DNA of 63,865 nt, counting the filler. It is 6 parts of 6 records of this genome, joined end to end, with 100 filler letters (N's around TTAATTAATTAA, not from the genome) between each part and the next. Parts side by side here need not be neighbours in the genome. Positions count along the whole stretch, not along the records: positions 1 to 15,113 come from SRR31156797_43839; 5 more parts are not named here. One strand, written 5' to 3'. Positions within the stretch are counted from its first letter, which is position 1, and each line of letters starts with the position of its first letter. Shown here one piece after another: positions 1 through 15,113 of the stretch. The translations under genes and the position numbers were made by a program. The notes under the pieces were generated by a model. It was not told the origin of the DNA and ran no database searches. It worked only from the letters and a program-made list of their open reading frames with translations.

Positions 1-1
1 T

Positions 2-391
2 GCCCTGGGCCACGCACTGGTCGATGATGTTGTTGCTCACCTGGGCCAGGCGGTACACATTGGCTTCCCTGGCCCTGAAGTCGCCACCCTTGATGGTGTC
101 GTAGAACAGGCGTTTGACGCTGTCCCCGTCATTCTGGTAATTTTTAGCGGCATTGATGCCGCCCTGGGCTGCAATGGAATGGGCCCGCCGGGGCGAATCC
201 TGGATGCAGAAGGTTTTTACATTATAGCCAAGTTCAGCCATTGAAGCCGATGCTGAAGCGCCCGCAAGCCCGGTGCCCACAACGATCACATTGAACTTTC
301 TCTTGTTTGCGGGGTTGACGAGCTTTACATTAAAACGATAATTGTCCCATTTCTTCTCTAAAGGGCCTTCAGGGATCTTTGAATCAAGCAT
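2..391 (-). CDS. sdhA: Succinate dehydrogenase/fumarate reductase flavoprotein subunit (N-terminal part; runs off window start)
   Basis: Manual translation from ATG at 391: [16 protein letters not shown]...[13 protein letters not shown]...[29 protein letters not shown]-binding GxGxxG and the covalent-FAD His motif; directly downstream of sdhC. Confidence 0.93.
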
Positions 392-406
392 AACGACAAA
401 CTTCCT

Positions 407-1048
407 TTATGAAACCATTGAAATAAAAACAGGAATACAACCAAATCCGAATGCCACCACCAGGCTCAGAAAAATCCCGGCGGTCTTGAACTTTGACTTA
501 CGGCCTGCAGTGCCCATGCCCAGTGTCTGGAAGGCGCTCCAGAAACCGTGGCTCACATGGAGGGCGGCAATCGCCATGGCCACCATGTAGAGGGCCACCA
601 TTTCCGGCCGGTGGAACCAGTTGGTCAAGATCACGAGGTCGCCGACCTTGCTCTGGGCGGCGGAATGAAAGGTGAGCAGATGAAAAACCACGAAAAGCAG
701 AATCAAGATGCCGGTAATGGCCATGCTTCTCGACCCCAGGGTTCTGCCCCCGGCGGTTTTGCTCACGGCATACCGGACCGGCCTTGCCTTGTAATTCTCA
801 TAGGCCAGAAAAAGCCCGGTGATCACATGGACGACGAACAGAATAAGCAGCACCCACTCTGCAATACGAATCAAAACGCCCAGGGAGTGAAGGTGCTCCA
901 CATACCAGTTAAACAGCTCCGGTCCGCCGTAAACCGTGAGGTTGCCAAGCAGATGGAAAACCAGAAACCCGCAGAAACTGAGGCCTGTGATGGCCATCAC
1001 CCATTTTTTACCGATGGAAGACCAAATGGTGTTCAAAAAACTGTTCAT
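407..1048 (-). CDS. sdhC: Succinate dehydrogenase/fumarate reductase cytochrome b subunit
   Basis: SSIGKKWVMAITG...HLLGN...H...HGFWSAFQTLG, five TM segments with heme His ligands. Start moved to ATG 1048 (GAGGGA RBS). Confidence 0.9.
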   Translation of the reverse strand: MNSFLNTIWSSIGKKWVMAITGLSFCGFLVFHLLGNLTVYGGPELFNWYVEHLHSLGVLIRIAEWVLLILFVVHVITGLFLAYENYKARPVRYAVSKTAGGRTLGSRSMAITGILILLFVVFHLLTFHSAAQSKVGDLVILTNWFHRPEMVALYMVAMAIAALHVSHGFWSAFQTLGMGTAGRKSKFKTAGIFLSLVVAFGFGCIPVFISMVS

Positions 1049-1494
1049 ATATCCCTCTAATACCCTTGTAATAATTATTAAACGAAAAAATCCAGGCCCA
1101 CGGTAAAGCAGGGGTGCCCGGATCTCAATTGAATCCAATTGAACCAGTTTTTCCTTGCCACATACAAAAGACTACACTGCCGGTACTACGATTGTCTCAA
1201 GAAACCGTCCGCATAAAAATGATTATCAACAAACGACCGGGACGTACGTAAAGCGCCACAGAAAGTGCAGAACCCTTTTCAAGGTTTCACATAACCAATT
1301 TTTATCACGCCGGTGGATCAAACGCGTCCGACGACTACGGCGTTCCCAGGCCGCCTCCCCCCTTTCGCCAATATTCCTGGCCATAATTCGTTAACAACGA
1401 TCATTCATTCACTTACTGTTCAGAGAATATTTCATACGCCATAATGCAGGAGGTGTCAAAAATAGTTTAAAAAAAATCAACATCCGCAAAAAAA

Positions 1495-2193
1495 TTACAG
1501 AATCGCCTTCACCAGGCGCTCCACCGCTTCCACCCCGTCCGGGGCCGGTGCACTGAAATCCGTGATCTTTCCCACCACCCCGGCCACGGGCACCCCGGAG
1601 AACCGCGCCACGGCCGCCATGTTCTCCCGGACAAGGGGATCCTCCGTCCCAAGGGCGTCCATGAACACAATGCCCCCAGGCCGCAGCCCCCGGGCCCTGA
1701 GGCACTCCACCGTCATCAGGGTGTGGTTGATGGTGCCAAGGCCCGTTCTTGCGGCAATCACGGGCAGGGCATGGCACGCCTTTATAACATCCGCCATGGT
1801 CACCGATTCGGTCACCGGCACCAGGAGCCCGCCGGCCGCCTCGATCACCAGGTGGGAATGGGCGCCCTCTTTTTCCCTGATTCTTTCCAGGGTGGTTTCA
1901 GGATCGATGGTCTCTCCCATGTCACGGGCGGCGAACCAGGGGGCCTTGGGATTTTCGTGGCAATTGAGAACGGAAGGGGCCGGGTCCCGCTTTTCCAGCC
2001 CCGGGGTGTGGCGATAGACAAAGGCGGCATCCCCCCGGGCATCCAAGGGGGAGCAGCAGCCGGTCTGGAAGGGTTTGATGTAAAAAGGCGTTTGGCCCTT
2101 TCGAATCAACGCCTGCATGATCAAGAGGGAAAGAACGGTTTTACCCACATCCGTGTCCGTGCCGATCACCGCGATTTTTTGGCACACCGCCAT
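1495..2193 (-). CDS. bioD: Dethiobiotin synthetase
   Basis: GTDTDVGKT P-loop, IKPFQTG, VIEAAGGLLVP, LGTINHT motifs. Confidence 0.96.
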   Translation of the reverse strand: MAVCQKIAVIGTDTDVGKTVLSLLIMQALIRKGQTPFYIKPFQTGCCSPLDARGDAAFVYRHTPGLEKRDPAPSVLNCHENPKAPWFAARDMGETIDPETTLERIREKEGAHSHLVIEAAGGLLVPVTESVTMADVIKACHALPVIAARTGLGTINHTLMTVECLRARGLRPGGIVFMDALGTEDPLVRENMAAVARFSGVPVAGVVGKITDFSAPAPDGVEAVERLVKAIL

Positions 2194-3330
2194 CTAGCCC
2201 ACCTCCTTCAACGCGTTCACAAGGGTTTGAATATCCGCGTCCCGGTGCAGGGCGGTCATGCCCAGCCGCAGGATCGCACGGCCCCGGGGCACGGTGGGGT
2301 ACCGGGCGGAAAACGCAAGAATGCCCCGGGCAAAAAGGGCCCCGGAGACCCGGACCGCCCGTTCCTCATCCCCCATCAACACCGAAATAATGTGGGCGTC
2401 CCCGGACACCCGGAAGCCCTGCCGGGTCAAGCGATCGCACATGGCGACACTAACATCTTTCAGGGTTTTCCTGGCATCATCCCCCTGCTCCACCAATTCC
2501 AGGGCATCCACGGCCCCCAGGGCATGGGCCGGGGGAAGAGCGGTGGTGTAGATAAAGGGGGAGGCAAAATTCACCAGATATTCCTTCACCCCGGGGGGCA
2601 GCAGCACAAAGGCGCCAAACAGCCCCAGGGCCTTGCCGAATGTGCCAAGGGCAATGTCCGCCGCTCCCCGGGCAATCCCCCTGCCCTTGTCGCCCAGCAC
2701 CCCGAAGGCGTGGGCCTCATCCACCACACTGTAAAATCCGTACCGGGCCTTCAGCTGCCCCAACGCCCTTACGGGCAACAGATCCCCGTCCATGCTGAAC
2801 AGGGACTCGGTCACCACGGCCCTGTTTTCCGGGGGCGCGGCAGCCAGCCGTTTTTCCAGGTGGGCAAGATTGTTGTGGCGATATCCCTTCATGGCGGCAT
2901 TGCTGAGGACCATGCCCTTGACCGAGCTTGCATGGACATGCTTGTCAAAGAGGAGGGTATCCCCGGGTTCGAACAAGGTGGAGAGCAGCGCCAGGTTGGC
3001 CTGGTATCCGCTGGAAAAAAAGAGGGCATCTTCATACCCGAAATAATCGGCAAAGGTTTTCTCCGCCCTGGAGATGGCGTCATAATTTCCCGCCACCAGG
3101 CGGGAGGAGGACGAGGAACCAGCGCCTGAAGACGTGTAATGGGCGGCCACCCGGGCGGCCAGTTCCGGGGACGCCCCCAGGCCCAAGTAGTCATTGGAGG
3201 CAAAGCTCAGGAGCTTTCTACCGTTGACGGTCACGAACCGTCCCTCCCGTTCTTCAATCACCGGGGGATTCCGGTAGAGCCCTTCCTGTTTTTGCAGCGC
3301 TATCCGATCCCTGAACCGCTTGTCAAACAT
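2194..3330 (-). CDS. bioF: 8-amino-7-oxononanoate synthase
   Basis: FASNDYLGL, SGYQAN, ESLFSMDGD, DEAHAFG, GTFGKALG (PLP Lys), RYPTVP. Confidence 0.95.
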   Translation of the reverse strand: MFDKRFRDRIALQKQEGLYRNPPVIEEREGRFVTVNGRKLLSFASNDYLGLGASPELAARVAAHYTSSGAGSSSSSRLVAGNYDAISRAEKTFADYFGYEDALFFSSGYQANLALLSTLFEPGDTLLFDKHVHASSVKGMVLSNAAMKGYRHNNLAHLEKRLAAAPPENRAVVTESLFSMDGDLLPVRALGQLKARYGFYSVVDEAHAFGVLGDKGRGIARGAADIALGTFGKALGLFGAFVLLPPGVKEYLVNFASPFIYTTALPPAHALGAVDALELVEQGDDARKTLKDVSVAMCDRLTRQGFRVSGDAHIISVLMGDEERAVRVSGALFARGILAFSARYPTVPRGRAILRLGMTALHRDADIQTLVNALKEVG

Positions 3331-3746
3331 GCAAACACCTCCTTGTATCGCTTCCTGAGAATTGCTTCAGGAAACCTGTCGTCGTACGCGGTTACGGAAA
3401 AAACAAACCTGCCGGAGAAAGATTCATTTTCCATCTCAGCCACAAGATCGTAGGAAAAGGCCGCCTGGCTCCGTGCCGCCTGGGTGCCGGAAAGGGCCAG
3501 TGAGCCGGAGATGCGTTCCTGCAATGGAAGGGAGCACGCCTCCACCTTGAGCAGGAAGGCATGGCTTGAAAAATCCAACAGCCTGCGCACATGGAGGGCG
3601 CCCAGCTGTGCCAGGGCCTCCATGACCACAAAAGAGGGCTGATCCGCAAAGACCGCCCTTCCCCGGATGCGTGTATCATCCGCCCGGGTAACCGAGGACA
3701 GGAGATGGAACCCCGCCATGCCGGTATCTATCGCTATTCTGTCCAT
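3300..3746 (-). CDS. Hot-dog fold, FabZ/ApeP-like dehydratase half-subunit (Glu-bearing)
   Basis: PSFVVMEALAQLGAL resembles FabZ PGVLxxEAMAQ; no HFPG His loop; overlaps bioF and fabF. Confidence 0.6.
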   Translation of the reverse strand: MDRIAIDTGMAGFHLLSSVTRADDTRIRGRAVFADQPSFVVMEALAQLGALHVRRLLDFSSHAFLLKVEACSLPLQERISGSLALSGTQAARSQAAFSYDLVAEMENESFSGRFVFSVTAYDDRFPEAILRKRYKEVFACLTSGSGIG

Positions 3747-4930
3747 TTTTTCACCACCAGGGCACCGTTCTGGCCGCCGAACCCGAAATTCTCCATCAGC
3801 AGGGTGTCAAAGGCGCTCTCCCGGGTCTCCCTTACAAAATCCAACCGGGGATCGCACGGATCCGCCAGGTTTCGAACCGCCGGCACAACTCCCCTGGCCA
3901 TGAGGGAGAGGCAGATGGCAAGCTCCACCACCCCGCAGGCCGTGGACAGATGCCCGATCCAGGACTTGAGGGCCATGATCCGGGGGGATCGGCCGGGAAA
4001 CAGCCGGGCCAGCAGGGCGGCCTCCATTTCATCGTTGAGGGGGGTGCCGGTGCCGTGGGCGGACACCACATCGATATCGGAAGGCGAAAGTTGTGCCTGT
4101 CCAAGGGCCTTTGCCACCGCCGTTTCCATCCATCGGCCCGACGGTTCCGGGGCGGTCATGCCGCCGCCGTCCATGGACGCGCCGGCCCCCGCCACCTCCG
4201 CCAGGATATGAGCCCCCCGTTTCCGGGCATGGTCCAGGGCTTCCAGGACCACAAACCCGCCCCCTTCGCCAATGACGAATCCGCTGCGGCCCCGGTCAAA
4301 CGGGCGATGGACCCGGCCGGGATCCCCCGGTGCCGTGCACAAGGCCCCGGCCATCTTATAGGCAAGGGCGGCCCCCGGGTTGACGCGGCTGTCCCCTCCC
4401 CCGGCCAGGGCAAGATCGAGACGCCCTTCCCGCACCTTCCGGAACGCCTCCCCCACCACCTGCACCGTGGTGGCGCAGGCCGTGCTCAGGGTCTGGCTTT
4501 CCCCGTGAATCCCGGCAAGGGCGGCAATGGCCGCGGCCGCGGTATTGGGAAGAAAGTTCAATATCCACAGGGCGGAGAGACTAGCGGGCTCCGCTTTTCC
4601 CCCGGTCCCAAGGTCCAGGTTGGGTCCGGCCCCCACAAACAGACCGGCCTGTTCCAGCATTCCGGGGGACAGCCCGGCATTTTTGACGGCCCTGAGGGCG
4701 GCGGCCACCCCAAAGGCGGCACCCCGGTTCAAATACCGGGCGTTCTTGTATCGCCCGGTATAGGTTTTTAAATTAAACTCCGGCACCGGCGCCACCACCA
4801 CCTCCGGATCAAACCCGGGCCGTTCAAAAACGGTCCGGTTCTGTCCCATGGCGGCCATCACCGCTTCCCCGCTGTTGCCAAGGGGAGAAAAAAACCCGGC
4901 CCCGGTAATCACCACACGACGGTTCATCAT
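3734..4930 (-). CDS. fabF: Beta-ketoacyl-ACP synthase (FabF/FabB family)
   Basis: RRVVITG, STACAT (Cys), AHGTGT (His), KSWIGH (His), NFGFGGQN. Start at ATG 4930 overlaps the upstream TGA (ATGA), with GGGAGG RBS. Confidence 0.9.
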   Translation of the reverse strand: MMNRRVVITGAGFFSPLGNSGEAVMAAMGQNRTVFERPGFDPEVVVAPVPEFNLKTYTGRYKNARYLNRGAAFGVAAALRAVKNAGLSPGMLEQAGLFVGAGPNLDLGTGGKAEPASLSALWILNFLPNTAAAAIAALAGIHGESQTLSTACATTVQVVGEAFRKVREGRLDLALAGGGDSRVNPGAALAYKMAGALCTAPGDPGRVHRPFDRGRSGFVIGEGGGFVVLEALDHARKRGAHILAEVAGAGASMDGGGMTAPEPSGRWMETAVAKALGQAQLSPSDIDVVSAHGTGTPLNDEMEAALLARLFPGRSPRIMALKSWIGHLSTACGVVELAICLSLMARGVVPAVRNLADPCDPRLDFVRETRESAFDTLLMENFGFGGQNGALVVKKWTE

Positions 4931-5571
4931 GCCTCCCAATAGATCTCTTCGGGTGATTTCCGGCCGGGACCGGCCGGGGCCTCGTCCGGGAACCCCAAGG
5001 TAAGAAAACATCGCAATCCCAGGGGATCAAGCCCCGGCACCGGATGCTCCCCGTCCAGAAAATGGAGGGGCGCGGTCAGGATACAGGTGCCAAGCCCCAG
5101 GGCCACCGCCCGCAGCATGAACAACTGAAGGGAGAGGCCAATGGTGATATCCCCGTCCGTCCCCCCAAGGGCATCACCGGCCGGGATACCGGCCCGGTTC
5201 AACCGTGTGGAAAAACGCTCCCCGCCCGTTTCCCCCCCCACGGCGAACAGGGCCGGGGCATCCCACATGAACCGGGAGTGACGCCAGTAATGGTTCAGCA
5301 CATTGATGGCCTTCCTGGGTTTCGAAAGCGCTTCCGCCCGGTTCACCATCTCCCGGTATCCTGTCTCCATCCGGGTGGAGAGCCTGTGCCGAACCTCCGG
5401 AGAAACCAGGCGAACATATCTCACCGGCTGTTGGTTGGAGGGGGACGGGGCCGTATTGGCCGAAAGAATCATCTCCCGGATATGGGATTCCGGCACCGTT
5501 CTGTCCGTGTATTTCCGGATGCTTCGCCTGGCCGCGACCAGGGCGTCAAACACGTTGGTCATCTCCGGCAA
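4927..5571 (-). CDS. Nitroreductase-family FMN oxidoreductase
   Basis: RRSIRKY, APSPSNQQP, LRAVALGLGTC, LGFPDE signatures. Confidence 0.9.
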   Translation of the reverse strand: MPEMTNVFDALVAARRSIRKYTDRTVPESHIREMILSANTAPSPSNQQPVRYVRLVSPEVRHRLSTRMETGYREMVNRAEALSKPRKAINVLNHYWRHSRFMWDAPALFAVGGETGGERFSTRLNRAGIPAGDALGGTDGDITIGLSLQLFMLRAVALGLGTCILTAPLHFLDGEHPVPGLDPLGLRCFLTLGFPDEAPAGPGRKSPEEIYWEA

Positions 5572-5924
5572 TGCTCCACATAGGCAACCAGGTCCCGGAC
5601 CTTCAGGACCGGTCCCTCCCCCAGCTCCGCCACCATCTGTCCCGCCCGTTCCGCCGGAATATGGGGAAGATTTTCAATGATCGCCGCCACAGGGTCCGCC
5701 CCCCTCTCCCTTGCCGCTGCGATCATGGCCCGAAGATGTTTCAGGAAGATGTCATCGTCCCGGACCTCGATTCCGAACTCGGTGGACAGGGCCAACGCCA
5801 CCTCAAGAAGATCGATGGATTCCGCATCCAGCTCCCGCACAAGGTAACTTTCCAAAAAAATATCCCCTTCATCCAGATCCAGAATCTCCATCAGGATCGT
5901 TCTCACCCGATTAAAATACGCCAT
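5559..5924 (-). CDS. Acyl carrier protein with internal insertion (121 aa)
   Basis: ELDAESIDLLEVALALSTEFGIEV (phosphopantetheine Ser in ESID) and C-terminal LKVRDLVAYV helix. Confidence 0.85.
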   Translation of the reverse strand: MAYFNRVRTILMEILDLDEGDIFLESYLVRELDAESIDLLEVALALSTEFGIEVRDDDIFLKHLRAMIAAARERGADPVAAIIENLPHIPAERAGQMVAELGEGPVLKVRDLVAYVEHCRR

Positions 5925-5946
5925 CGCACAATTACTCCTTTACGCC

Positions 5947-6687
5947 TTATTTGCCGGCGGTGAGGCCGCCGTCCATGATGATCGCCACCCCGTTGAAGTG
6001 CCGGGCCGTGTCCGATAAAAAGAAAACCAGGGCCTGTGCCGCCTCGGCCGGTGAAATAAACCCTTCCCCCGGCATCCTTTGGACCAGGTCCCGGCCCTGC
6101 TGCTCAATAAATTGTTTTCCCCGGCCCGACGCCACATACCCCGGCCTCAGGGCCATGGCGGTGATCCCCCGTGACGCCAGCTCAAGCCCCGCACTCCGGT
6201 AGATTCCCTCGGACCCAAGCTTGGAGGCGGCGTACAGCCCCTGTCCCTTTCCGGGGCAGCCGGCCGCGGCCGAGGAGAGAAAAATCATTCGCCCGAAGCG
6301 ATGCCGGACCATGGCTCTTGTTGCCAGGCGCACCAGCTCCGCCCGGGCCGCGACATTCCCGGCCAGGTATCGGGAGAGCCGGCCCGGATCCGCAGAGGCC
6401 ACCAGGGTTTCGTAATCCCCCTGGGCCATATCCACCAAATAATCGATGTCCGGATGGTCGGAAAAGATCTCTCCCATCCGCTCCGGACGGGCCAGGTCAA
6501 AAAAGGCGGTTTGGTATTGCCCGGCCCATGGGGAGAGCCGGTCCTCGATCTTCTCCGCTCCCTTCCGGTGCCGGAAGCAGAGGATGGGAAAAAGCCCCTC
6601 CGCCATCAACAGGGGCGCGAGCGTCAGGGCGATCCCGCAGCTGCCGCCGGTGACAAGCACCTTTTTCCCCGTAAAGACAAGGTTCAT
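5947..6687 (-). CDS. fabG: 3-oxoacyl-ACP reductase-like SDR
   Basis: TGGSCGIA, FLSS, YAASK (YxxxK), PGYV, DGG C-terminus. Confidence 0.8.
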   Translation of the reverse strand: MNLVFTGKKVLVTGGSCGIALTLAPLLMAEGLFPILCFRHRKGAEKIEDRLSPWAGQYQTAFFDLARPERMGEIFSDHPDIDYLVDMAQGDYETLVASADPGRLSRYLAGNVAARAELVRLATRAMVRHRFGRMIFLSSAAAGCPGKGQGLYAASKLGSEGIYRSAGLELASRGITAMALRPGYVASGRGKQFIEQQGRDLVQRMPGEGFISPAEAAQALVFFLSDTARHFNGVAIIMDGGLTAGK

Positions 6688-6977
6688 AACACAAGCTTCC
6701 CTGTCACCACGGCCCGGTCCTTGTCAAACAGGGTGCACCGGATACCGGAGCCGTCCCCCCGCATTCCGTACCGGTACTCCCCCGGGGAGACAAACCGCCT
6801 GAACCTGAAATTGGAAACCCGCACCGGCCTTACCCGGCCCTGCCGGGCATGGACCTTGAGAAAGGCATGGATGATCACGCTTCCCGGCACCACGGGATGT
6901 CCCGGGAAATGATCCCCATAGATCCTGTCGGCCGGGTCAAAAAAAAACACCCCTTCCCGGTAAAACGAGGTATCCAT
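6684..6977 (-). CDS. Hot-dog fold, FabZ/ApeI-like dehydratase half-subunit (His-bearing)
   Basis: DHFPGHPVVPGS motif and FRRFVSPG; the catalytic Glu position is His. Confidence 0.75.
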   Translation of the reverse strand: MDTSFYREGVFFFDPADRIYGDHFPGHPVVPGSVIIHAFLKVHARQGRVRPVRVSNFRFRRFVSPGEYRYGMRGDGSGIRCTLFDKDRAVVTGKLVL

Positions 6978-7958
6978 CTAGGACGCCACCCTGAGGCCCA
7001 GGTCTTTGATCATCTCCATATCGGTCTTGATGCTCCGGCCCCGGGTGGTGAGATAATCCCCGCCCATGAAGGCGTTGGCCCCGGCCGTAAAGATAAAGGA
7101 CTGGAAATCATCGAGAATTTTTTCCCGGCCCCCGCAGATGGTGATATTCCGGGTTGGATTGATGAACCGGAACAGGGCGATGCTCTTTAACGCGTCCACG
7201 GGCGTCACCAGGGGCCTTGATGCCATGGGGGTGCCGGGAATCGGGTTGAGAAAGTTGATGGGCACGGTGTCCACATCAAGCTCCCCCAGGGTAAAGGCAA
7301 GCTCCACCCGCTGCTCCCAGGACTCACCCAGGCCCAGGATCCCCCCGCTGCATACGGAAAAACCGGCCTCCTTGGCGATCTTCACGGTCTCCACATCGTC
7401 CCGGTAATCATGGGTGGTGCAGATCCTGTCAAAATAACTTTCCGCCGTCTCCAGGTTATGGTGGTAATTGGAAATGCCCGCCTCCCGGAGCCACCTGGCC
7501 ATGGGCAGGGTCAACGCCCCCAGGGAGGCGCACACCTTGAGGGGCGTGGCCTTGCGAATCGCCTCCGCGGCCCGGCAGACGGTGTCCAGGTCACGGCCCT
7601 TAAGGCTGAATCCGCTGGTGACCATGGAAAAATGGGTGGCGCCCTGCCCCGCCATGCGCACAGCGGTTTCCAGGATTTCATCCACCCCGCGCATGGGATA
7701 GGTTTCAACGTCGGTGCGGTGAAAGGAGGACTGGGCGCAATAGGCGCAATCCTCGGAACAGCGACCGGACTTGGCATTGATGATGGCGCATGAGAAGATC
7801 CGGTCCCCTGTCTCTTTCTCCCGGATCTTTCCCGCACAGCCGATCATGTAAAACAGATCCGCCCCGGAGACCCGGGTAAGCTCCAGCGCCTCCTCCCGGG
7901 TGATCCGACCGTCGGTCAAGATTTTTTCCGCAAGAACGGAAATAGCAATTTTGAACAT
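6978..7958 (-). CDS. bioB: Biotin synthase
   Basis: Radical SAM CSEDCAYC, YHHNLET, CSGGILGLGES, VPINFL, GDYLTT. Confidence 0.97.
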   Translation of the reverse strand: MFKIAISVLAEKILTDGRITREEALELTRVSGADLFYMIGCAGKIREKETGDRIFSCAIINAKSGRCSEDCAYCAQSSFHRTDVETYPMRGVDEILETAVRMAGQGATHFSMVTSGFSLKGRDLDTVCRAAEAIRKATPLKVCASLGALTLPMARWLREAGISNYHHNLETAESYFDRICTTHDYRDDVETVKIAKEAGFSVCSGGILGLGESWEQRVELAFTLGELDVDTVPINFLNPIPGTPMASRPLVTPVDALKSIALFRFINPTRNITICGGREKILDDFQSFIFTAGANAFMGGDYLTTRGRSIKTDMEMIKDLGLRVAS

Positions 7959-8013
7959 GGCTCCTCTCGATTTTCAGTTTTTTGTTTGCTGTATGGGATC
8001 AAATATGCACCAC

Positions 8014-8047
8014 ATTGTCAACTCAAATCTTATACAGGGTTGACAAT
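8014..8047. promoter_or_regulatory. BirA operator (bioO) upstream of bioB
   Basis: ATTGTCAAC-N16-GTTGACAAT perfect inverted repeat matching the TGTxAAC-N14/16-GTTxACA BirA consensus. Confidence 0.9.
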
Positions 8048-8065
8048 ACAAAACGGAACAGGTGT

Positions 8066-8108
8066 ATGGGAAATAGAGAAACACGGCTTAATCTGCTGGA
8101 ATCCAACC
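8066..8108 (+). pseudogene. birA: birA 5' remnant
   Basis: MGNRETRLNLLESN versus intact BirA N-terminus [14 protein letters not shown]; similarity stops after ~14 codons. Confidence 0.8.
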
Positions 8109-8237
8109 CAAAACACATTCTCAGGGTAACGCATGTAATAATTATGGGAAAAACGATACATACTTATGTGAATCTCGTCCCCCACCCCAAACCATATCCC
8201 ATTGAAATTGCAAACAAACCACTTCCCCTTATCACTC

Positions 8238-8253
8238 CGGCACAATAATTGCT
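8238..8253 (+). promoter_or_regulatory. Sigma54 (-24/-12) promoter
   Basis: CGGCAC-AATAA-TTGCT matches YGGCAC-N5-TTGCW, ~35 nt before the riboswitch. Confidence 0.8.
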
Positions 8254-8286
8254 TTTTTATTCTGATTCTGCAGCATTTAGCAAACA

Positions 8287-8366
8287 GCCCGCGACAAAGC
8301 CAAATCCTGTGCAAACAGGAGACGGAAAGCCATGGGGTCTGTGGGAGACAGCCCGGCTGCCGGGGC
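8287..8366 (+). ncRNA. Cyclic di-GMP-I (GEMM-I) riboswitch
   Basis: CGACAAAG-CC-AAA-TCCTGT-GCAA-ACAGGA-GACGG-AAAGCC...GGTCT-GTGGG-AGACAGCC-CGGCTGCCG. P2 with GNRA loop, covarying CC/GG pairs, P3 and GCCC/GGGC P1; sits in the 5' UTR. Confidence 0.88.
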
Positions 8367-8390
8367 CATTCATTAAAAAAGGAGACGTTG

Positions 8391-9236
8391 ATGATCCATC
8401 TTAAAAGGCTTGTTACTCTTTTGCTCATCCCACTGTTCCTGTGGGGTGTTGCCGGAACCGCAGGGGCATCAATCTCGGAAGGGGATTTTGCTTATGTCTG
8501 GTATGAATACACGGTTTCCGGTGAAGATGATCAGTCGGGTTTCTTCCTTGACGAACACGTTGGGAAGGACTTGCATGATTTCGGAACGGTGGAGGTGAAC
8601 AGCCGGCTCTCTTTCTTTGCGCCGGAGTCCAACTACGCCAGGGCTGAGCTGGTTCATAAAGATGTGGACTATGCAAAAGGCGCAGGCGTTCAGATCGATG
8701 TGGATCCTTGGGCCCATCCGGAATCCTTTTCTGGTGGAACGGGATGGGCGGACGCCTATGCTGAAATATATTTTTCAAAAGAGTTTGAGATAACAGCATC
8801 AGGGTATGCGGCCCTGGGCTTCTCCCTGGACGGGTGGCTCGAAGCCTCGGGGGCAGCCGAAGCGAATTGGTCTTATGTCGCTGCCGACAATTTCGACAGC
8901 TTTTTTGAAGATAGGGATTCCATAACGAATGCATCCATGGATGTGGATATCCAAGAGCTGTTTACCTATTCCTTTTCGGAAGATGATATCGGCGAGATCC
9001 TGTCGGTGGGATTTTTGCTCCAGATATATGCGGGCTTTACCGGCGAGGATGGCGGCATGACCGGCCGGGCGATGGCGGACTTCATGGACACCATGTCGAT
9101 CGATTTCATATCCGGGGGACTTGCCAATGCAGGGGGGGATGAAGTGCCGGTTCACCCCACGCCTGTTCCGGCGGCTGCCTGGCTTTTGCTCTCCGGCCTG
9201 TTAAGCCTGATCGGCTTAAGAAATAAGATCGGTTAG
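8391..9236 (+). CDS. Secreted acidic protein with VPLPA/PEP-CTERM sorting signal
   Basis: AAGGAG RBS, signal peptide ...GTAGA, C-terminal PTPVPAAAWLLLSGLLSLIGLRNK. Confidence 0.88.
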   Translation: MIHLKRLVTLLLIPLFLWGVAGTAGASISEGDFAYVWYEYTVSGEDDQSGFFLDEHVGKDLHDFGTVEVNSRLSFFAPESNYARAELVHKDVDYAKGAGVQIDVDPWAHPESFSGGTGWADAYAEIYFSKEFEITASGYAALGFSLDGWLEASGAAEANWSYVAADNFDSFFEDRDSITNASMDVDIQELFTYSFSEDDIGEILSVGFLLQIYAGFTGEDGGMTGRAMADFMDTMSIDFISGGLANAGGDEVPVHPTPVPAAAWLLLSGLLSLIGLRNKIG

Positions 9237-9262
9237 CTCACCTGACCACCTTTGCTTTCATC

Positions 9263-9296
9263 AAGGCGGGGGCCATGGCGCCCGCCTTTCCTGTTT
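9263..9296 (+). terminator. Rho-independent terminator
   Basis: AAGGCGGG...CCCGCCTT stem followed by T-rich tail, between convergent genes. Confidence 0.7.
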
Positions 9297-9306
9297 TCCG
9301 GCGGCG

Positions 9307-9699
9307 CTATTCCCTTCCCCGGGGATATTTCAATTCTATCACCAACACGATTTTCCGTTTTCCGTTTCCCGGTTCAAAGCGGAGGGAGAACAGAACGCTC
9401 ACCTTTATCGCCCGGAGCCGGGGATATGGCTCTCGTTCCCCCATACCGGCGGAGAGGATGCGCCATCCCCTCCGCTTCAACCCGGCTCGGTAAAAGTCAA
9501 CCACCTCTTCCGGGCTGGCGCCCATAGCAAAGACAGTCTTTACAGAATCCCTGGTATACCGGGTCTCAAGCGGTTCCGCCCCCTGAAAAACCGGCACCGA
9601 TTTACCGAACTCCCGGGGGAGGGTATGGTTGCACCAGGCCAGGCCGGCAAAGAGGAGCATACCGATAATGGGAATCATGATGGGGATTCGGCGAATCAT
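9307..9699 (-). CDS. Hypothetical exported protein
   Basis: AGGAGG RBS, N-terminal signal-like MIRRIPIMIPIIGMLLFAGLAW, EVVDFYRAGLKRRGW. Confidence 0.65.
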   Translation of the reverse strand: MIRRIPIMIPIIGMLLFAGLAWCNHTLPREFGKSVPVFQGAEPLETRYTRDSVKTVFAMGASPEEVVDFYRAGLKRRGWRILSAGMGEREPYPRLRAIKVSVLFSLRFEPGNGKRKIVLVIELKYPRGRE

Positions 9700-9975
9700 T
9701 CTTCCCCTCCTTTTTCCAAAGGGGGTGTATCCCGAAACGGATGGCATAATCTTTTCCCCGTCCCCCCTGTCTTACGAGGAAAAGATCACGCTCCAATCCT
9801 GTTGAGGGGCAATCGTCCCCACGGATCACTCAATTCCGCTGAAAATCGCGTTCCCGAGCTGCTTGAACGAGTTTCTGGAATGGCCCCGGAAGGTGGGATC
9901 AATCCCTATACCAATTCAGAGAGATGACGTGGAATTGCAATATGAAGCAGGGGTTTCCCCTTGAATCGCTCTTTT

Positions 9976-10104
9976 TTTGTTTGCCGTATGGGATCAAATA
10001 TGCTTTATATTGTCAACTCAAAATTCAAACAAGGTTGACAATACGAAACGGAAACAGGTGCATGGGAAATCGAGAAACATTACTGAACCTATTGAAATCC
10101 AACC
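9976..10104 (+). repeat. Direct repeat copy 2 (operator + birA start)
   Basis: See copy 1 at 7981-8108. Confidence 0.92.
10008..10043. promoter_or_regulatory. BirA operator upstream of birA-bioA
   Basis: TATTGTCAAC-N16-GTTGACAATA. Confidence 0.9.
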
Positions 10105-11054
10105 AGAACCGCTGGGTCTCCGGAGAGGTGCTGCGCCAGCACCTGGGGATCAGCCGGAATGCCGTGTCCAAGCACATCCGCACCCTCAGGGCCACCGGAT
10201 ATGAGATCCGGTCCGCCCCCCGGAAGGGATATCTCCTCCATGGCATAAAGGATCGCATCATCCCGGAAGAGATCCGGGACGGCCTTGCCACCACGGTGTT
10301 TGGCAAGCAGGAAATCCGCTGCTTCACGGAGACCGATTCCACCAGCCGGCAGGCCCGGGCCCTTGCCGATGACGGTGCCGGGGAGGGCGCCCTCATCCTT
10401 GCGGAAAGCCAGACCCATGGCCGGGGCAGAAAGGGCCGCGCCTGGTTCACCCCAAAGGGAGAGGGGATCTTCATGTCCATGATCCTGAGGCCCCCCATCG
10501 CCCCCATGGACGCCTCCCGGCTCACCCTGGTCACGGCCGTGGCCCTGGCCGAAGCCCTGATCGATACCACCGGGCTTGCGATCCGGATCAAATGGCCCAA
10601 CGATATTTTGTGCAAAGGGAAAAAGCTGGCCGGGATTCTCACGGAACTCAGCACGGAGATGGACGCGGTGAACCATGTGATCATCGGCCTGGGGCTCAAC
10701 GTCAACACCCCCCGGGAGGCGTTCCCGGAGGAACTCAGGGCTAAAGCCTCCTCCCTCCTTGCGGAATCGGGCAGGGTCCACTCCCGCTGCCTTCTCACCA
10801 AACGTTTTCTGGAACGGTTCGAGGGCCATTACACCACCCTGACCAATGACGGTTTTCCCGATCTCCTTGACCGGTGGAAGGCCCTCTCCGACACCCTGGG
10901 CCAACGGGTGTGCGTGGAGATGATCGGCAAACGCCTCACCGGCACCATCCGGGACCTGGATCCCAACGGTTTCCTGGTCCTCGAGGACGAAGCCGGCGTG
11001 CATCACCGCATCCTGTCCGGGGATCTCATACCATTGACAGGGAAAGACGCATGA
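10062..11054 (+). CDS. birA: Bifunctional biotin operon repressor/biotin-protein ligase
   Basis: N-terminal wHTH ([21 protein letters not shown]), [23 protein letters not shown]. Confidence 0.96.
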
Positions 11055-11095
11055 ACGAAAACGCGATCGTAAAATGGGCAGGCAAAAAGAAATGA
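11051..11095 (+). other. 14-codon mini-ORF coupled to birA and bioA
   Basis: ATG overlaps the birA TGA; its TGA overlaps the bio[18 protein letters not shown]. Confidence 0.4.
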
Positions 11096-12375
11096 ACCAA
11101 TGCGAAATATTGAAAACCGACCGGGAACTTCTCTGGCACCCCTACACCTCCATGGTCGATCCCCTGCCGGTCTACCCGGTGGTGGGGGCATCCGGTGTCC
11201 GGCTCGAGCTTGAAGACGGCAGATGCCTCATCGACGGCATGTCTTCCTGGTGGGCGGCCATCCACGGGTACAACCATCCGGTCCTGAACCAGGCGGCCCA
11301 CCAACAGATCAACGCCTTCTCCCACGTCATGTTCGGGGGCATCACCCACAGGCCCGCGGCCGAGCTGGGCAAGCTCCTGGTGGAGATCACCCCCGGGGGC
11401 CTTGAGCAGGTGTTCCTGGCCGACTCCGGCTCCGTCGCCGTGGAGGTGGCCATCAAGATGGCGATCCAATACTGGTTTGCCTTAGGCCGTCCCGAAAAGA
11501 ACCGGCTTTTGACCATCCGCCGGGGCTACCACGGGGACACCACCGGGGCCATGTCCGTGTGCGACCCGGTCACGGGCATGCACGGCATCTTCACCGGCAT
11601 CCTGCCAAAGCAATTGTTTGCCGACGCCCCGGCCATCCCCTTTGGCGAAAAGTTCCGGGAAGCGGATATCCAGAGCATGAAAACCCTCCTGGAAGCCCGC
11701 CACCCGGAGATCGCCGCCGTGATCCTGGAACCCATTGTCCAGGGGGCCGGCGGCATGCGGTTCTACACCCCGGGATACCTGAAACGGGTGAGGGAACTCT
11801 GCGACCAATACGAGGTGCTCCTGATCTGTGACGAGATCGCCACGGGATTCGGCCGCACCGGCAAGCTGTTCGCCTGCGACCATGCCGGGATCCGCCCGGA
11901 CATCCTCTGCCTGGGCAAGGCGCTCACCGGCGGGTACATGACCCTGGCCGCCACCCTCACCACCCGGCGGATCAGCCACGCCATCTCGGAAGAAGGAAGA
12001 TCCGTGTTCATGCACGGCCCCACCTTCATGGGCAATCCCCTGGCCTGCGCCGTTGCCCTGGCCAGCATCCGCCTGCTCCTTACGAGCCCCTGGCAGGCAA
12101 CCGTGGCCCGGATCGAAACCCAAATGAAAAAGGAGCTTGCCCCCTGCCGGGACCTTCCCCAGGTGCAGGCGGTGCGGGTGCTGGGCGCCATCGGCGTGGT
12201 GGAAATGAAAAAACCGGTCAACATGGGAGAGATCCAGAAGCGCTTTGTCGAAAAAGGGGTGTGGGTGAGACCCTTTGGCAGGCTGATCTACATCATGCCG
12301 CCCTACATCATCTCCCCCGGCGACCTGAGTATACTCACCCGGGCCCTGGTTGAAGTGGTCAGCCGGGAACACTGA
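11092..12375 (+). CDS. bioA: Adenosylmethionine-8-amino-7-oxononanoate aminotransferase
   Basis: [45 protein letters not shown]. Confidence 0.97.
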
Positions 12376-12400
12376 ATTTAACCTTATGTCAGGAGAAGAG

Positions 12401-12967
12401 ATGGAACGCTGCAACTGGTCAACCAATGACCCTGAATATATTGAATACCATGATACCGAATGGGGGGTGCCGGTCCATGACGATGGGAAGCTTTTTGAAT
12501 TCCTCATCCTTGAAGGCGCCCAGGCAGGTCTTTCCTGGATTACGATCCTGAAAAGAAGGGAAGGGTATAAAAAGGCGTTTGCCAATTTTGACCCGGAAAA
12601 AGTGGCCCGGTTCACCCCGGAGCAAATTGAAATGAGTCTCAAGGACCCGGGCATTATCCGGAACAAGCTGAAAGTCAATTCAGCCGTGACCAATGCCCGG
12701 GCGTTTTTAAAGATCCAGGAGGAATTCGGCTCTTTTGATCACTATGCCTGGAGATTTGTAAACGGACGCCAGAAAGTAAACGCGTTTACCCGTATGGATC
12801 AGATTCCCGCCACCTCCAGGGAGTCGGAGGCCTTTTCAAAGGACCTGAAACAACGGGGATTCAAATTCGTCGGTTCCACCATCATCTATGCCTATATGCA
12901 GGCCACCGGCATGGTCAACGACCACCTGGTCTCCTGCTTCAGATACCATGAAGTGATGGAGGCCTGA
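12401..12967 (+). CDS. tag: DNA-3-methyladenine glycosylase I
   Basis: RCNW...YHDTEWG, LEGAQAGLSW, IIRNKLK, NDHLVSC. Confidence 0.96.
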   Translation: MERCNWSTNDPEYIEYHDTEWGVPVHDDGKLFEFLILEGAQAGLSWITILKRREGYKKAFANFDPEKVARFTPEQIEMSLKDPGIIRNKLKVNSAVTNARAFLKIQEEFGSFDHYAWRFVNGRQKVNAFTRMDQIPATSRESEAFSKDLKQRGFKFVGSTIIYAYMQATGMVNDHLVSCFRYHEVMEA

Positions 12968-12979
12968 TATCTCAAACCG

Positions 12980-13684
12980 CTAGCCCATGAAGGGCGCCAC
13001 GATAAAATAGATCCCCAACAGGATAATTGTGGAACCGGCCAGTTTCCGAAACCACTGGCCGGCCCCGTTCCATGCGCTGTTTTCAAGCAGTTTTTTGACA
13101 ACAGCCGTTGAACTGCCGGCAATGGCAATGGGCAGACAATGGCCGAGCCCGAACACGATGATCAGGATCACGCCGGTCATGACCTTTTCCTGGATGGTGA
13201 TGATCGCCAGGATCGGCGCAATGAACCCAAAGGTGCATGAGCCGGACAACACCCCGTAAGCAAGCCCCAGCACAAGGGCGCCGGTCAGTCCCCTCAACTG
13301 GAACCGGCCCAAAAGGCTTCCGGACATGGCACATTTTTCCACCCCGAGCATGCCCAGGGCCACCCAGATGAGAATGATGCCGATGAGAACCTGCCAATAC
13401 TCACCCACATCCCCCAGCATCCTGCCAAGCAGGGCACAGATAATACCGATCAGGGCAATGGTCAAAAATAATCCCAGGGTAAAAAGCGCGGAATAGATCC
13501 CGGCCTGCCTGGGGTGAATCATTTTTTCCTGGCCGCCCACATACCCGACAATCAGCGGAATGGAAGCCAGGTGACAGGGGCTGAAGAGCACACTGATCAT
13601 CCCCCATACAAAACATCCAAAGGCGGCCAATGCGATCTCGCCGGTCATCCATTGGTTCACAATGATAAAAAGTTGATCAAACAT
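12980..13684 (-). CDS. ccdA: Cytochrome c biogenesis CcdA/DsbD-like membrane protein
   Basis: FSPCHLASIP and SGSCT cysteine motifs, ~6 TMs. Confidence 0.85.
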   Translation of the reverse strand: MFDQLFIIVNQWMTGEIALAAFGCFVWGMISVLFSPCHLASIPLIVGYVGGQEKMIHPRQAGIYSALFTLGLFLTIALIGIICALLGRMLGDVGEYWQVLIGIILIWVALGMLGVEKCAMSGSLLGRFQLRGLTGALVLGLAYGVLSGSCTFGFIAPILAIITIQEKVMTGVILIIVFGLGHCLPIAIAGSSTAVVKKLLENSAWNGAGQWFRKLAGSTIILLGIYFIVAPFMG

Positions 13685-13724
13685 TCGCTTTTTCCTTACG
13701 GTTCAAATTTTTCAATCTTTCCAT

Positions 13725-14249
13725 TCATAGGTCCAGATTGAACCCGCCCATATAATCCGCCAGCTGCCGGCGCTCGGGATCACTTATCTGGGGACAATCT
13801 TCCGGGCCTTTGGCGCCTTCGGCCACCTTGGAGGCAAAAACCAGGCAGGTGGGGTCATTGCACTCCCTGCAATTGGTTTTTGGCAAAAATTTCAGGATTT
13901 CAACGATTCCCGGTCTCGGCATCCCGGTGAAACAGGGTTCGATTTCATCCTTTTGCTCCCAGGCCGCATTGATTTCGTTTTTCATCCATTCAACGATTTT
14001 TTCGGCCTCTTCCGCTGTTTTAAGGGCATTGACGGCAATTTTATCGCCATGAACGGTGATCAGTTTTCCCTGGGACTTGAAGATCACAGCCGGTGGATCC
14101 GACAGGTATTCAAACCCGCCCAGCACCGAGTTAAGATAGGGCAAGGCCTCGCTCACATCCTGGTCCAGGTGGGCAAAGCAATGGACCCCCTGTGCATCCG
14201 CCTGGCATTTTGACCTGAAGATTTCCAGTCGATAGGATTTTAAAAGCAT
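13725..14249 (-). CDS. Fe-S cluster domain protein
   Basis: C-terminal LPKTNCRECNDPTCLVFA...CP 4Fe-4S motif. Confidence 0.8.
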   Translation of the reverse strand: MLLKSYRLEIFRSKCQADAQGVHCFAHLDQDVSEALPYLNSVLGGFEYLSDPPAVIFKSQGKLITVHGDKIAVNALKTAEEAEKIVEWMKNEINAAWEQKDEIEPCFTGMPRPGIVEILKFLPKTNCRECNDPTCLVFASKVAEGAKGPEDCPQISDPERRQLADYMGGFNLDL

Positions 14250-14298
14250 TTTTACTCTCCTTTACCATCTGTATTCAGCAGGGGCTTCCACCCGACGA

Positions 14299-14688
14299 TC
14301 ACCCTTTATTGGTGAGATCCGGCTGGGCCACGCCCATTTTTGTCATCTGTTCAATGATGCTTTTCTCATCCAGGAACCCCACATGGCGAAACACCTCTTC
14401 ACCTTTTTCGTTAAAAAAGATCTGGGTGGGAATCGCCCGGACTTTGAACCGCGGTGCCTGGGACCGGTTCTCCCAGACATCGATAAAAACGATGTGGGCC
14501 TTTCCCTGGTATGCTTTTTCAAGTTTTGCCAATATGGGTGCCATCATTTTACAGGGAATACATTTTTTCGCCCCCAAATCAATCATGGTCACCGCCCCCT
14601 TGGTCGGGACATTTGAAAAATCCGCGGCATGGGCACCCGTTGCGAAAAGGAGAACAAGAACAGAGAGGGATATCAAAATTTTATGCAT
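14299..14688 (-). CDS. Exported thioredoxin-family protein
   Basis: Signal peptide, CIPC, AIPT cis-Pro motif. Confidence 0.9.
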   Translation of the reverse strand: MHKILISLSVLVLLFATGAHAADFSNVPTKGAVTMIDLGAKKCIPCKMMAPILAKLEKAYQGKAHIVFIDVWENRSQAPRFKVRAIPTQIFFNEKGEEVFRHVGFLDEKSIIEQMTKMGVAQPDLTNKG

Positions 14689-14815
14689 GGTTATTCCTTT
14701 GACTCAAATTTACAATTTTTAAGGTAGTAAAAGCATCACTGTTTCCCACATTGGACCCACCGGAACAGGTAAGTATCATGACATTTTGGAAATCACAGCA
14801 GCAATCGTCGGACAT
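14681..14815 (-). pseudogene. Truncated DGC-domain zinc-binding protein
   Basis: AAGGAGG RBS; MSDDCCCDFQNVMILTCSGGSNVG matches the DGC N-terminus, then loses similarity and stops after 44 aa. Confidence 0.6.
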
Positions 14816-14932
14816 GGTCTCTCCTCCTTTTAAAAAGTGACAAATTGAACTTGGTTGTTTTTAATTCCAAGATGCGTCGCCATCAACACTATATGGTCAT
14901 ATGTCGATGTTTGAAAGCAAAATTTTTTAAGA

Positions 14933-15112
14933 CTATTCCTTTCCAACAATATTATGACGGTCGATCCCCGGAAGTATCCGGTTCAGCTCCCGGATCTCAG
15001 ACGCATCAGCCAGCCAGTGCTTCAGGTTGCCGATCATGCTGGCCGAATACGGGGACCCACTCCCATCGGCAAGGGCATAATTCACCCACAATCCATCCTT
15101 GAAACTTCTCAC
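14933..15112 (-). CDS. ArsR/SmtB-family regulator (C-terminal part, contig edge)
   Basis: Manual translation VRSFKDGLWVNYALADGSGSPYSASMIGNLKHWL...*; wHTH wing motif; context. Confidence 0.75.
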   Translation of the reverse strand: MRSFKDGLWVNYALADGSGSPYSASMIGNLKHWLADASEIRELNRILPGIDRHNIVGKE

Positions 15113-15113
15113 A

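Follow-up and report, generated by a model that had tools for sequence, protein, structure and literature searches.

Dehydratases of the hot-dog fold differ in how a catalytic His and its acidic partner are distributed over polypeptide chains. In the double hot-dog dehydratase domains of animal fatty acid synthases and polyketide synthases, both residues belong to one polypeptide, in a layout that places the His first and the acid second. In the homodimeric, hexameric FabZ, each chain carries both residues and two sites are formed per dimer, as described for the enzyme from H. pylori, where His58' and Glu72 are 14 residues apart, come from two monomers and dimerization proceeds through β3 (PMC5143422). 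In the mycobacterial type II fatty acid synthase (FAS-II), the heterodimers HadAB and HadBC each combine two hot-dog proteins and share one active site between them, and in HadAB both His41 and Asp36 reside on HadB, whereas HadA only binds the acyl chain (PMC4491049). Finally, ApeI and ApeP of aryl-polyene pigment synthesis are heterodimeric dehydratases with a single active site (PMC8041823), which in the structure from Xenorhabdus doucetiae (PDB 6QSR) consist of a short His-bearing subunit (the ApeI chain of 119 amino acids, aa) and a longer Glu-bearing subunit without the His, two different hot-dog proteins encoded apart in one cluster. Here we describe a comparable pair of proteins from a biotin (bio) operon, located on a stretch of DNA of 63,865 nucleotides (the window), whose positions 1 to 15,113 correspond to the record SRR31156797_43839 and along whose whole length all coordinates are counted. 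Two open reading frames (ORFs) on the minus strand, one coding for a protein of 97 aa (6684-6977) and the other for a protein of 148 aa (3300-3746), lie on genes 3 kb apart instead of on one polypeptide and carry one residue of the dyad per chain, in contrast to FabZ, and also in contrast to HadAB in that the dyad is divided between the subunits. We consider it probable that the two ORFs are the halves of an ApeI:ApeP-type heterodimeric dehydratase of 3-hydroxyacyl chains bound to acyl carrier protein (ACP), which helps to build the pimeloyl precursor of biotin. The basis of this proposal is computational throughout: the two proteins were examined for the placement and conservation of residues, for their folds, for remote kinship with ApeI and ApeP and for their operon context, and a model of the complex passes its calibration mark. 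From these results we infer physical binding, catalysis and substrate.

The sequence-only reading of the window had claimed that the 97-aa protein keeps the His-containing loop of FabZ (HFPG.PVVPG) and has a His in place of the catalytic Glu, and both statements, as well as the boundaries of the ORF, were confirmed. Its relevant segment, which reads DHFPGHPVVPGSVIIHAF, is aligned by phmmer to PDB chains of FabZ, with HFPGHPIYPGVLILEGM (3d6x, E 0.012) and HFPKRPVMPGVLIIEAL (4h4g) as counterparts, in a register that puts His23 of the motif HFPGHPVVPG on the FabZ His and His37, 14 residues later, on the FabZ Glu. The same register is repeated in a profile of 25 relatives (E 1.4e-6), and 51 matches to the protein were listed in a database search. 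His23 is present in all 25 sequences and position 37 is variable (His in 15, Gln in 3, Asn in 2 and Glu, Arg, Cys, Tyr and Lys in one each), so that His37 marks the loss of the Glu and not its replacement by another residue. Against the FabZ models of NCBIfam (TIGR01750 and NF000582), the protein scores 20.9 and 21.3 bits, at cut-offs of 155 and 113. In its AlphaFold 2 (AF2) model (predicted local distance difference test, pLDDT, 89.8), the order of secondary structure elements is that of a minimal hot dog, and Foldseek finds FabZ chains as nearest structures and the ApeI chain 6qsr_A at rank 6, with 53 PDB matches at E ≤ 0.001. Also invariant in the 25 relatives is Cys81, for which we know of no role.

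The 148-aa protein shows the complementary pattern. It has no match in Pfam or NCBIfam, and a phmmer search of the PDB with its single sequence returned chance matches only (a globin and a cadherin). A search of 1.84 billion proteins yielded 215 representatives of its family (E ≤ 1e-3), and 71 full-length matches chosen from the best 150 of these were aligned with the window protein to give 72 rows. The resulting profile aligns the segment lllEalAQ to LIVEALAQ of the anammox FabZ (8ayc, E 0.006), which is its best match, and all eight PDB matches up to an E of 10 are FabZ dehydratases. In this alignment, Glu43 coincides with the Glu of FabZ, and the GHFP loop of the latter meets unconserved columns of the family. 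Glu43 and Gln47 are found in 72 of 72 sequences, Leu65 is likewise invariant, and no column before Glu43 contains a His in more than 9 of the 72. The profile and its conservation thus corroborate the claim, made from the sequence, that this ORF (whose segment reads FADQPSFVVMEALAQLGALH) keeps a MEALAQ motif but lacks the His loop. Since both ORFs have conserved families, the observation is more than chance, and an invariant His23 next to a variable position 37 in one family and an invariant Glu43 without a His in the other fit a dyad that is split between them. Further conserved positions of the 148-aa family are His52 (69/72), Arg54 (68/72, with Lys in the other four) and His62 (67/72), which as judged from their conservation are candidates for binding an ω-carboxylate or the ACP; the first is common to ApeP-like proteins, the other two are not. 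The model of the protein (pLDDT 75.4, predicted TM score, pTM, 0.73) contains two strands followed by a long helix, four strands and a C-terminal helix, and bears out the hot-dog fold, with FabZ (1u1z) as nearest structure in Foldseek (TM score of 0.63 over about 134 columns) and 115 PDB matches at E ≤ 0.001. Fused forms carrying both His and Glu were not found among the best 150 of the 215 representatives, all of which have at most 251 aa; seven of the longer ones among them (P0149, P0211, P0200, P0208, P0203, P0160 and P0194) contain insertions or N-terminal extensions without an HFPG module.

Structure prediction of the complex, which covered one pair with the 97-aa protein as chain 1 and the 148-aa protein as chain 2 and did not use the alignments built here, agrees with the heterodimer that had been proposed from the sequence. 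The interface score ipSAE is 0.92 in all three runs, compared to 0.08 for the best of three controls, and thus lies above a mark that was reached in calibration by 51 of 78 solved complexes and by 2 of 108 mismatched pairs. At least 98% of the contacts are common to the runs, and the pLDDT of the partner is 91 or higher. In the predicted interface, strand 54-59 of the 97-aa protein pairs with strand 65-71 of the 148-aa protein in the manner of FabZ, residues 16-27 of the 97-aa protein including His23 are part of the contact region, and Glu43 contacts Pro31, Ser33 and Val34 at the head of the helix of the other subunit (1:31/33/34 with 2:43). Residues 1-14 of the 148-aa protein, with a pLDDT below 50 in the monomer model, are located in the complex on strand 7-14 of the 97-aa protein, although this ordering is only suggestive because the monomer and the complex were modelled with different programs.

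As a precedent for such an arrangement, the sequence-only reading had named the ApeI/ApeP pair, and the available evidence indicates that the relationship is closer than an analogy. Precomputed annotations assign the Pfam family PF22818 (ApeI-like) to 51 of 51 homologues of the 97-aa protein among the matches listed, and in the Atlas its three best clusters are 88-100% ApeI-like. The link of the second subunit to ApeP is more remote. For its detection we aligned 18 ORFs located beside a ketosynthase and upstream of a short-chain dehydrogenase (SDR) in loci of the aryl-polyene type, which match the ApeP chain 6qsr_B with an E of 3e-18. In hhalign, this alignment matches the 148-aa family with a probability of 96.5% (E 8.2e-10, 108 columns), placing Glu43 on an invariant Glu and His52 on a His nine residues later. 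In 6qsr_B itself, the Glu is kept and a Ser is found at the would-be His. The 148-aa protein also matches ApeP-like clusters of the Atlas at 0.91, whereas in the local Pfam copy none of the 72 family members matches the ApeP-like model (PF22817), and on sequence grounds we regard the family as a diverged, remote relative of ApeP and not as one of its scored members. It is distinguished from ApeP by this divergence and by its own conserved Arg54 and His62.

In aryl-polyene-type loci, the site of the FabZ Glu retains an acid, Asp or Glu, in 15 of 31 ApeI-like modules from ApeP-containing loci (e.g. L035:17382-17870, L018 and L025), which is another difference to the pair described here. A His that is absent in 6qsr_B is present, within an SHR motif, in nearly all of the 18 ApeP-like ORFs aligned (≥90%), and some of these ApeI/ApeP pairs may thus contain two working sites. 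The ORF with the His module is long (267-806 aa) in 11 of the 31 loci (L018, L022, L024, L025, L027, L029, L044, L060, L072, L077 and L080), which fits the ApeH-ApeI fusion described in PMC8041823.

The genes of the two proteins are part of a tightly packed operon on the minus strand, with spacings from bioB to bioD of 0, -4, +22, -13, -85, -13, -31 and 0 nucleotides. It starts with bioB, coding for biotin synthase (6978-7958; NCBIfam bioB 393 bits, cut-off 225), whose stop codon is immediately followed by the ATG of the 97-aa ORF, and the stop of the latter forms an ATGA overlap with the start of a FabG-like SDR, a candidate 3-oxoacyl-ACP reductase (5947-6687). These are followed by a dedicated ACP of 121 aa (5559-5924), a nitroreductase-family protein as candidate enoyl-ACP reductase (4927-5571; Pfam Nitroreductase, E 3e-21) and a FabF-like ketoacyl-ACP synthase (3734-5011). 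The latter coordinates refer to the longest reading of the ORF, which overlaps with the upstream gene by 85 nucleotides. Translation probably begins at Met28 (4930) instead, whereby the overlap would shrink to an ATGA stop-start junction, in keeping with a Pfam domain that begins at residue 31. Downstream of the 148-aa ORF and overlapping its 3' end by 31 nucleotides is bioF, coding for the 8-amino-7-oxononanoate synthase that consumes pimeloyl-ACP (2194-3330; 348 bits against the bioF model, below its cut-off of 426), and the operon ends with bioD for dethiobiotin synthase (1495-2193; NCBIfam bioD 116 bits, cut-off 83). With ACP, ketoacyl-ACP synthase, SDR and FabZ-like genes inserted between bioB and bioF, the operon is an extended bio operon of the Desulfovibrio type (Rodionov 2004; Trotter 2023). 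The neighbours of both hot-dog ORFs are thus bioB, bioF, bioD, a single ketosynthase, a single ACP, the SDR and the nitroreductase, among which none of the marks of an aryl-polyene cluster is found, neither a pair of ketosynthase and chain-length factor (KS-CLF) nor tandem ACPs, an ApeH-type loader or Lol-like export genes. Pfam and NCBIfam scans also revealed no bioW-like ligase among the operon genes. In the ACP, the PP-binding domain covers only residues 6-68, and the remaining C-terminus of about 50 aa forms an extension. ORFs of comparable length (113-127 aa) code for the ACP in four other loci (L001, L003, L004 and L008), which makes the extension look like a feature of the ACP of this pathway. 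The GC content, analysed across positions 1-63,865 in windows of 2 kb, varies from about 0.40 (14-28 kb and 32-34 kb) to about 0.63 (2-8 kb and 36-38 kb).

Upstream of the operon, the sequence points to control by BirA. A palindrome resembling the BirA operator, TTGTCAAC-N16-GTTGACAA, is located at 8015-8046, 57 nucleotides upstream of the start of bioB, and a second copy is found at 10,010-10,041. These are the two matches of a search of the whole stretch, in which none was expected by chance, using a consensus derived from the BirA sites in Table 1 of PMC545781, which the operator of the operon fits. From the presence of this operator upstream of bioB, the operon is predicted to be repressed by BirA. 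On the plus strand, birA itself (9924-11,054; Pfam BPL_LplA_LipB, HTH_11 and BPL_C) codes for a biotin-protein ligase with an N-terminal helix-turn-helix (HTH) repressor domain. Its translation probably starts at Met47 of the long ORF, at position 10,062, with the second palindrome residing just upstream. It is followed by a bioA-like class-III aminotransferase on the same strand (11,074-12,375; Pfam Aminotran_3, E 3.4e-123), for which the name bioA is assigned by context only. The region between bioB and birA contains a direct duplication of about 131 bp (7978-8108 and 9973-10,104; 81 nucleotides at 86% and 59 nucleotides at 78% identity), and in each copy the palindrome is accompanied by the initial codons of birA (MGNRET.LNLL). 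Both copies flank a stretch of 1.9 kb with a GC content of 0.52, compared to 0.61, encompassing two ORFs (8202-9236, plus strand, and 9307-9747, minus strand) without a match in Pfam. As judged from its sequence, this stretch resembles an insertion that entered the control region of bioB and birA and copied the operator in the process.

To place the pair in a broader context, ORFs with a His module were compared in 80 genome loci, which include nine of the biotin type (L001-L008 and L010), 31 with an ApeP-like ORF and 40 with neither. In the nine biotin-type loci, the His is found in all and the equivalent of position 37 is occupied by Gln (3), His (2), Asn, Glu, Gly and Arg (one each), compared to Asp (12), Gln (6), His (5), Glu (3), Arg (2), Gly (2) and Thr (1) in the 31 loci with an ApeP-like ORF. 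The remaining 40, which by their residues are mostly ordinary FabZ, have Glu (30), Asp (4), Gln (3), Ala, His and Arg (one each) at this site. In a phylogenetic tree calculated from 81 sequences of the His module (90 columns), the biotin-type sequences cluster together (SH-aLRT 92), with one long-branch intruder (L080). Past the ketosynthase reach three of the biotin-type loci, from Desulfoluna (L003), a metagenome-assembled genome (MAG) of the Thermodesulfobacteriota (L004) and an Elusimicrobia MAG (L008), and in all three a homologue of the 148-aa protein is encoded between the ketosynthase and bioF. The order bioB, 97-aa homologue, SDR, ACP, (nitroreductase), ketoacyl-ACP synthase, 148-aa homologue and bioF recurs in these loci, and both genes are thus retained in the cluster across the Thermodesulfobacteriota and the Elusimicrobiota. 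The nitroreductase gene is also found inside the gene set of L001, L004, L006 and L008 and is absent from L003. Together with complementary conservation, folds and the complex model, this co-occurrence lends support to the proposal, put forward from the sequence of the window, that the two proteins share a single His/Glu site in a heterodimer.

The closest characterized cluster of this type, whose kind was first predicted in 2004 (PMC545781), is found in D. vulgaris Hildenborough, where 9 of 10 genes needed in the absence of biotin lie in DVU2558:DVU2565 (PMC10102598). Two of its proteins, DVU2560 and DORF42491, contain FabZ-like domains, and their genes are 3.3 kb apart (PMC10102598, Supplementary Table 5), like the pair described here. 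Since eight locus tags and DORF42491 add up to nine, both are presumably among the genes that are needed. Cluster type and gene positions agree with our operon, whereas the nitroreductase gene of D. vulgaris, whose family was proposed to provide the missing enoyl-ACP reductase (PMC10102598), is located outside of the cluster as DVU1220. Gene position and the Nitratidesulfovibrio locus L010 suggest that the hot-dog proteins of the window are orthologues of DVU2560 and DORF42491. Neither heterodimer nor hot dog is a term used in the main text of PMC10102598, whose passages on the cluster assign no residues, and a literature search, from whose reach most subscription papers were excluded, did not reveal a paper that proposes a heterodimer for the biotin cluster.

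Several observations weigh against the assignment of the two proteins as an ApeI:ApeP-type pair with a split dyad. In the local Pfam copy, the 97-aa protein has no ApeI-like match and each of the 25 members is assigned to FabA only, and its own FabA score of 22.9 bits is just below the cut-off of 23. The 25-sequence profile matches FabZ better than the ApeI chain 6qsr_A (E 1.4e-6 compared to 0.028), an hhalign comparison of the two window families with each other finds no match (probability of 0.1%), which by itself speaks neither for nor against the pair, and the tree, with 50 of 78 branches open, does not place the biotin-type sequences relative to the ApeI and FabZ types. The high score of the complex may reflect memory of, or likeness to, solved FabZ dimers and 6QSR. 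The co-occurrence of both genes rests on three complete loci, the other six ending before the second gene. Moreover, 1 of 25 relatives and 1 of the nine biotin-type loci have a Glu at position 37. In the His subunit of Desulfoluna spongiiphila (L003:9983-10273), which has a Glu at the FabZ Glu site (LVVEAF), both residues are present, yet the locus retains the 148-aa gene, indicating that the split is not absolute. Finally, hot-dog thioesterases follow close behind FabZ in the Foldseek search with the 148-aa model.

These structural matches raise the question of whether the 148-aa protein could be a hot-dog thioesterase that acts apart from a 97-aa dehydratase and releases or edits acyl chains, for example by freeing pimelate. 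The thioesterases in question, 4-hydroxybenzoyl-CoA thioesterase and HI1161/PA1618, are found with E values of 6e-5 to 1.8e-4 compared to 1.5e-5 for FabZ, and an acidic residue of the central helix is likewise employed by hot-dog thioesterases. Such an activity would counter the pathway, because BioF, the product of the next gene, takes a thioester, and no bioW-like ligase is seen among the operon genes; together with the exclusive match of the family profile to FabZ dehydratases (8/8), the kinship to ApeP and the predicted heterodimer, this makes a thioesterase highly improbable. We also considered that the 97-aa protein might be the sole catalyst, either as homodimer or by employing another acidic residue, with the 148-aa protein as non-catalytic partner that binds substrate or sets chain length. 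This is how HadA serves HadB, which contains the complete His-Asp dyad and leaves the binding of the acyl chain to its partner (PMC4491049), and the 97-aa family does contain other conserved acids, with Asp17 being invariant and Asp14 nearly so. However, the 148-aa family keeps Glu43 and Gln47 in 72 of 72 sequences, in alignment with the catalytic Glu of FabZ and ApeP, while the equivalent position of the 97-aa family varies, and in the complex model it is Glu43 that contacts the region of the His loop. We thus view this option as unlikely.

The third alternative describes the two proteins as separate homodimers with separate jobs, such as one for each round of elongation, or one of them as a decayed remnant, in which case their complementary residues would be a coincidence. 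The genes are 3 kb apart and not adjacent, as might be expected in this scenario, but so are ApeI and ApeP encoded apart in their own cluster (PMC8253772, Table 1), and by the mechanism of FabZ neither homodimer would have a complete dyad. In addition, both families are conserved, both genes recur in the cluster across two phyla and genes of the D. vulgaris cluster are needed when biotin is absent (PMC10102598), which leaves independent homodimers as a very unlikely explanation. All three alternatives are disfavoured by the invariant, aligned Glu, by a His subunit that lacks the acid and by the logic of the operon.

In the proposed ApeI:ApeP-type heterodimer, the 97-aa protein would act as a shortened hot dog that supplies the catalytic His23 and the loop forming the oxyanion hole (HFPGxPVVPGS), and the 148-aa protein would contribute the catalytic Glu43 at the start of its central helix. 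The subunits are predicted to pair via the strand following each central helix, as in FabZ homodimers, resulting in one working site (His23 and Glu43) and one dead pseudo-site per heterodimer, and the N-terminal 14 residues of the 148-aa protein, packed in the model onto the first strand of the 97-aa subunit, may stand in for the N-terminal part that is missing there. Whereas ApeI:ApeP acts on a growing aryl polyene and is encoded in a pigment cluster that includes a KS-CLF pair, the enzyme proposed here belongs to a BirA-controlled biotin operon, and its presumed substrates would be short dicarboxylic acyl chains that are later reduced. Operon context and published genetics point to 3-hydroxyglutaryl-ACP and 3-hydroxypimeloyl-ACP on the ACP of the cluster as most likely substrates, the C5 and C7 intermediates with a free carboxylate in two rounds of elongation that would lead from malonyl-ACP to pimeloyl-ACP, which is then passed on to BioF. 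In each round, dehydration would take place between the step of the SDR and a reduction perhaps carried out by the nitroreductase-like protein. As a tentative extension, about which we have more doubts than confidence, the asymmetry of the heterodimer might allow the pathway to use intermediates with a free carboxylate, without the methyl-ester disguise of BioC/BioH. In this speculative version, Arg54 and His62, conserved in this family but neither in ApeP nor in FabZ, and perhaps His52 would line a small polar pocket for recognition of the ω-carboxylate, a ruler admitting only C5 and C7 dicarboxylic chains, and the shortened His subunit would depend on the N-terminal arm of its partner for a complete fold, with neither protein being stable alone.

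The Desulfovibrio-type bio cluster, its genetics and its two FabZ-like genes are already in print (PMC545781, PMC10102598), as is the ApeI:ApeP design from a solved structure. New is the pairing of these facts, the recognition of the unnamed 148-aa family as a diverged relative of ApeP and a prediction at the level of residues. How pimelate is synthesized without bioC/bioH or bioW in Desulfovibrio and other anaerobes has been a standing question since the cluster was predicted in 2004, and the genetic study of 2023 demonstrated that the genes are needed and left the biochemistry undefined (PMC10102598). The interpretation of both hot-dog proteins as one enzyme gives direction to the experimenter, who would co-express both genes and mutate His23 and Glu43, and the conserved polar residues might explain how a free carboxylate is tolerated. 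At the same time, a family of 215 representatives without Pfam model gains a likely function, and the ApeI:ApeP design would be seen to be used in primary metabolism, for the synthesis of a vitamin, and thus beyond the synthesis of pigments. In this way, the proposed heterodimer would make an old question about the pathway easier to test.

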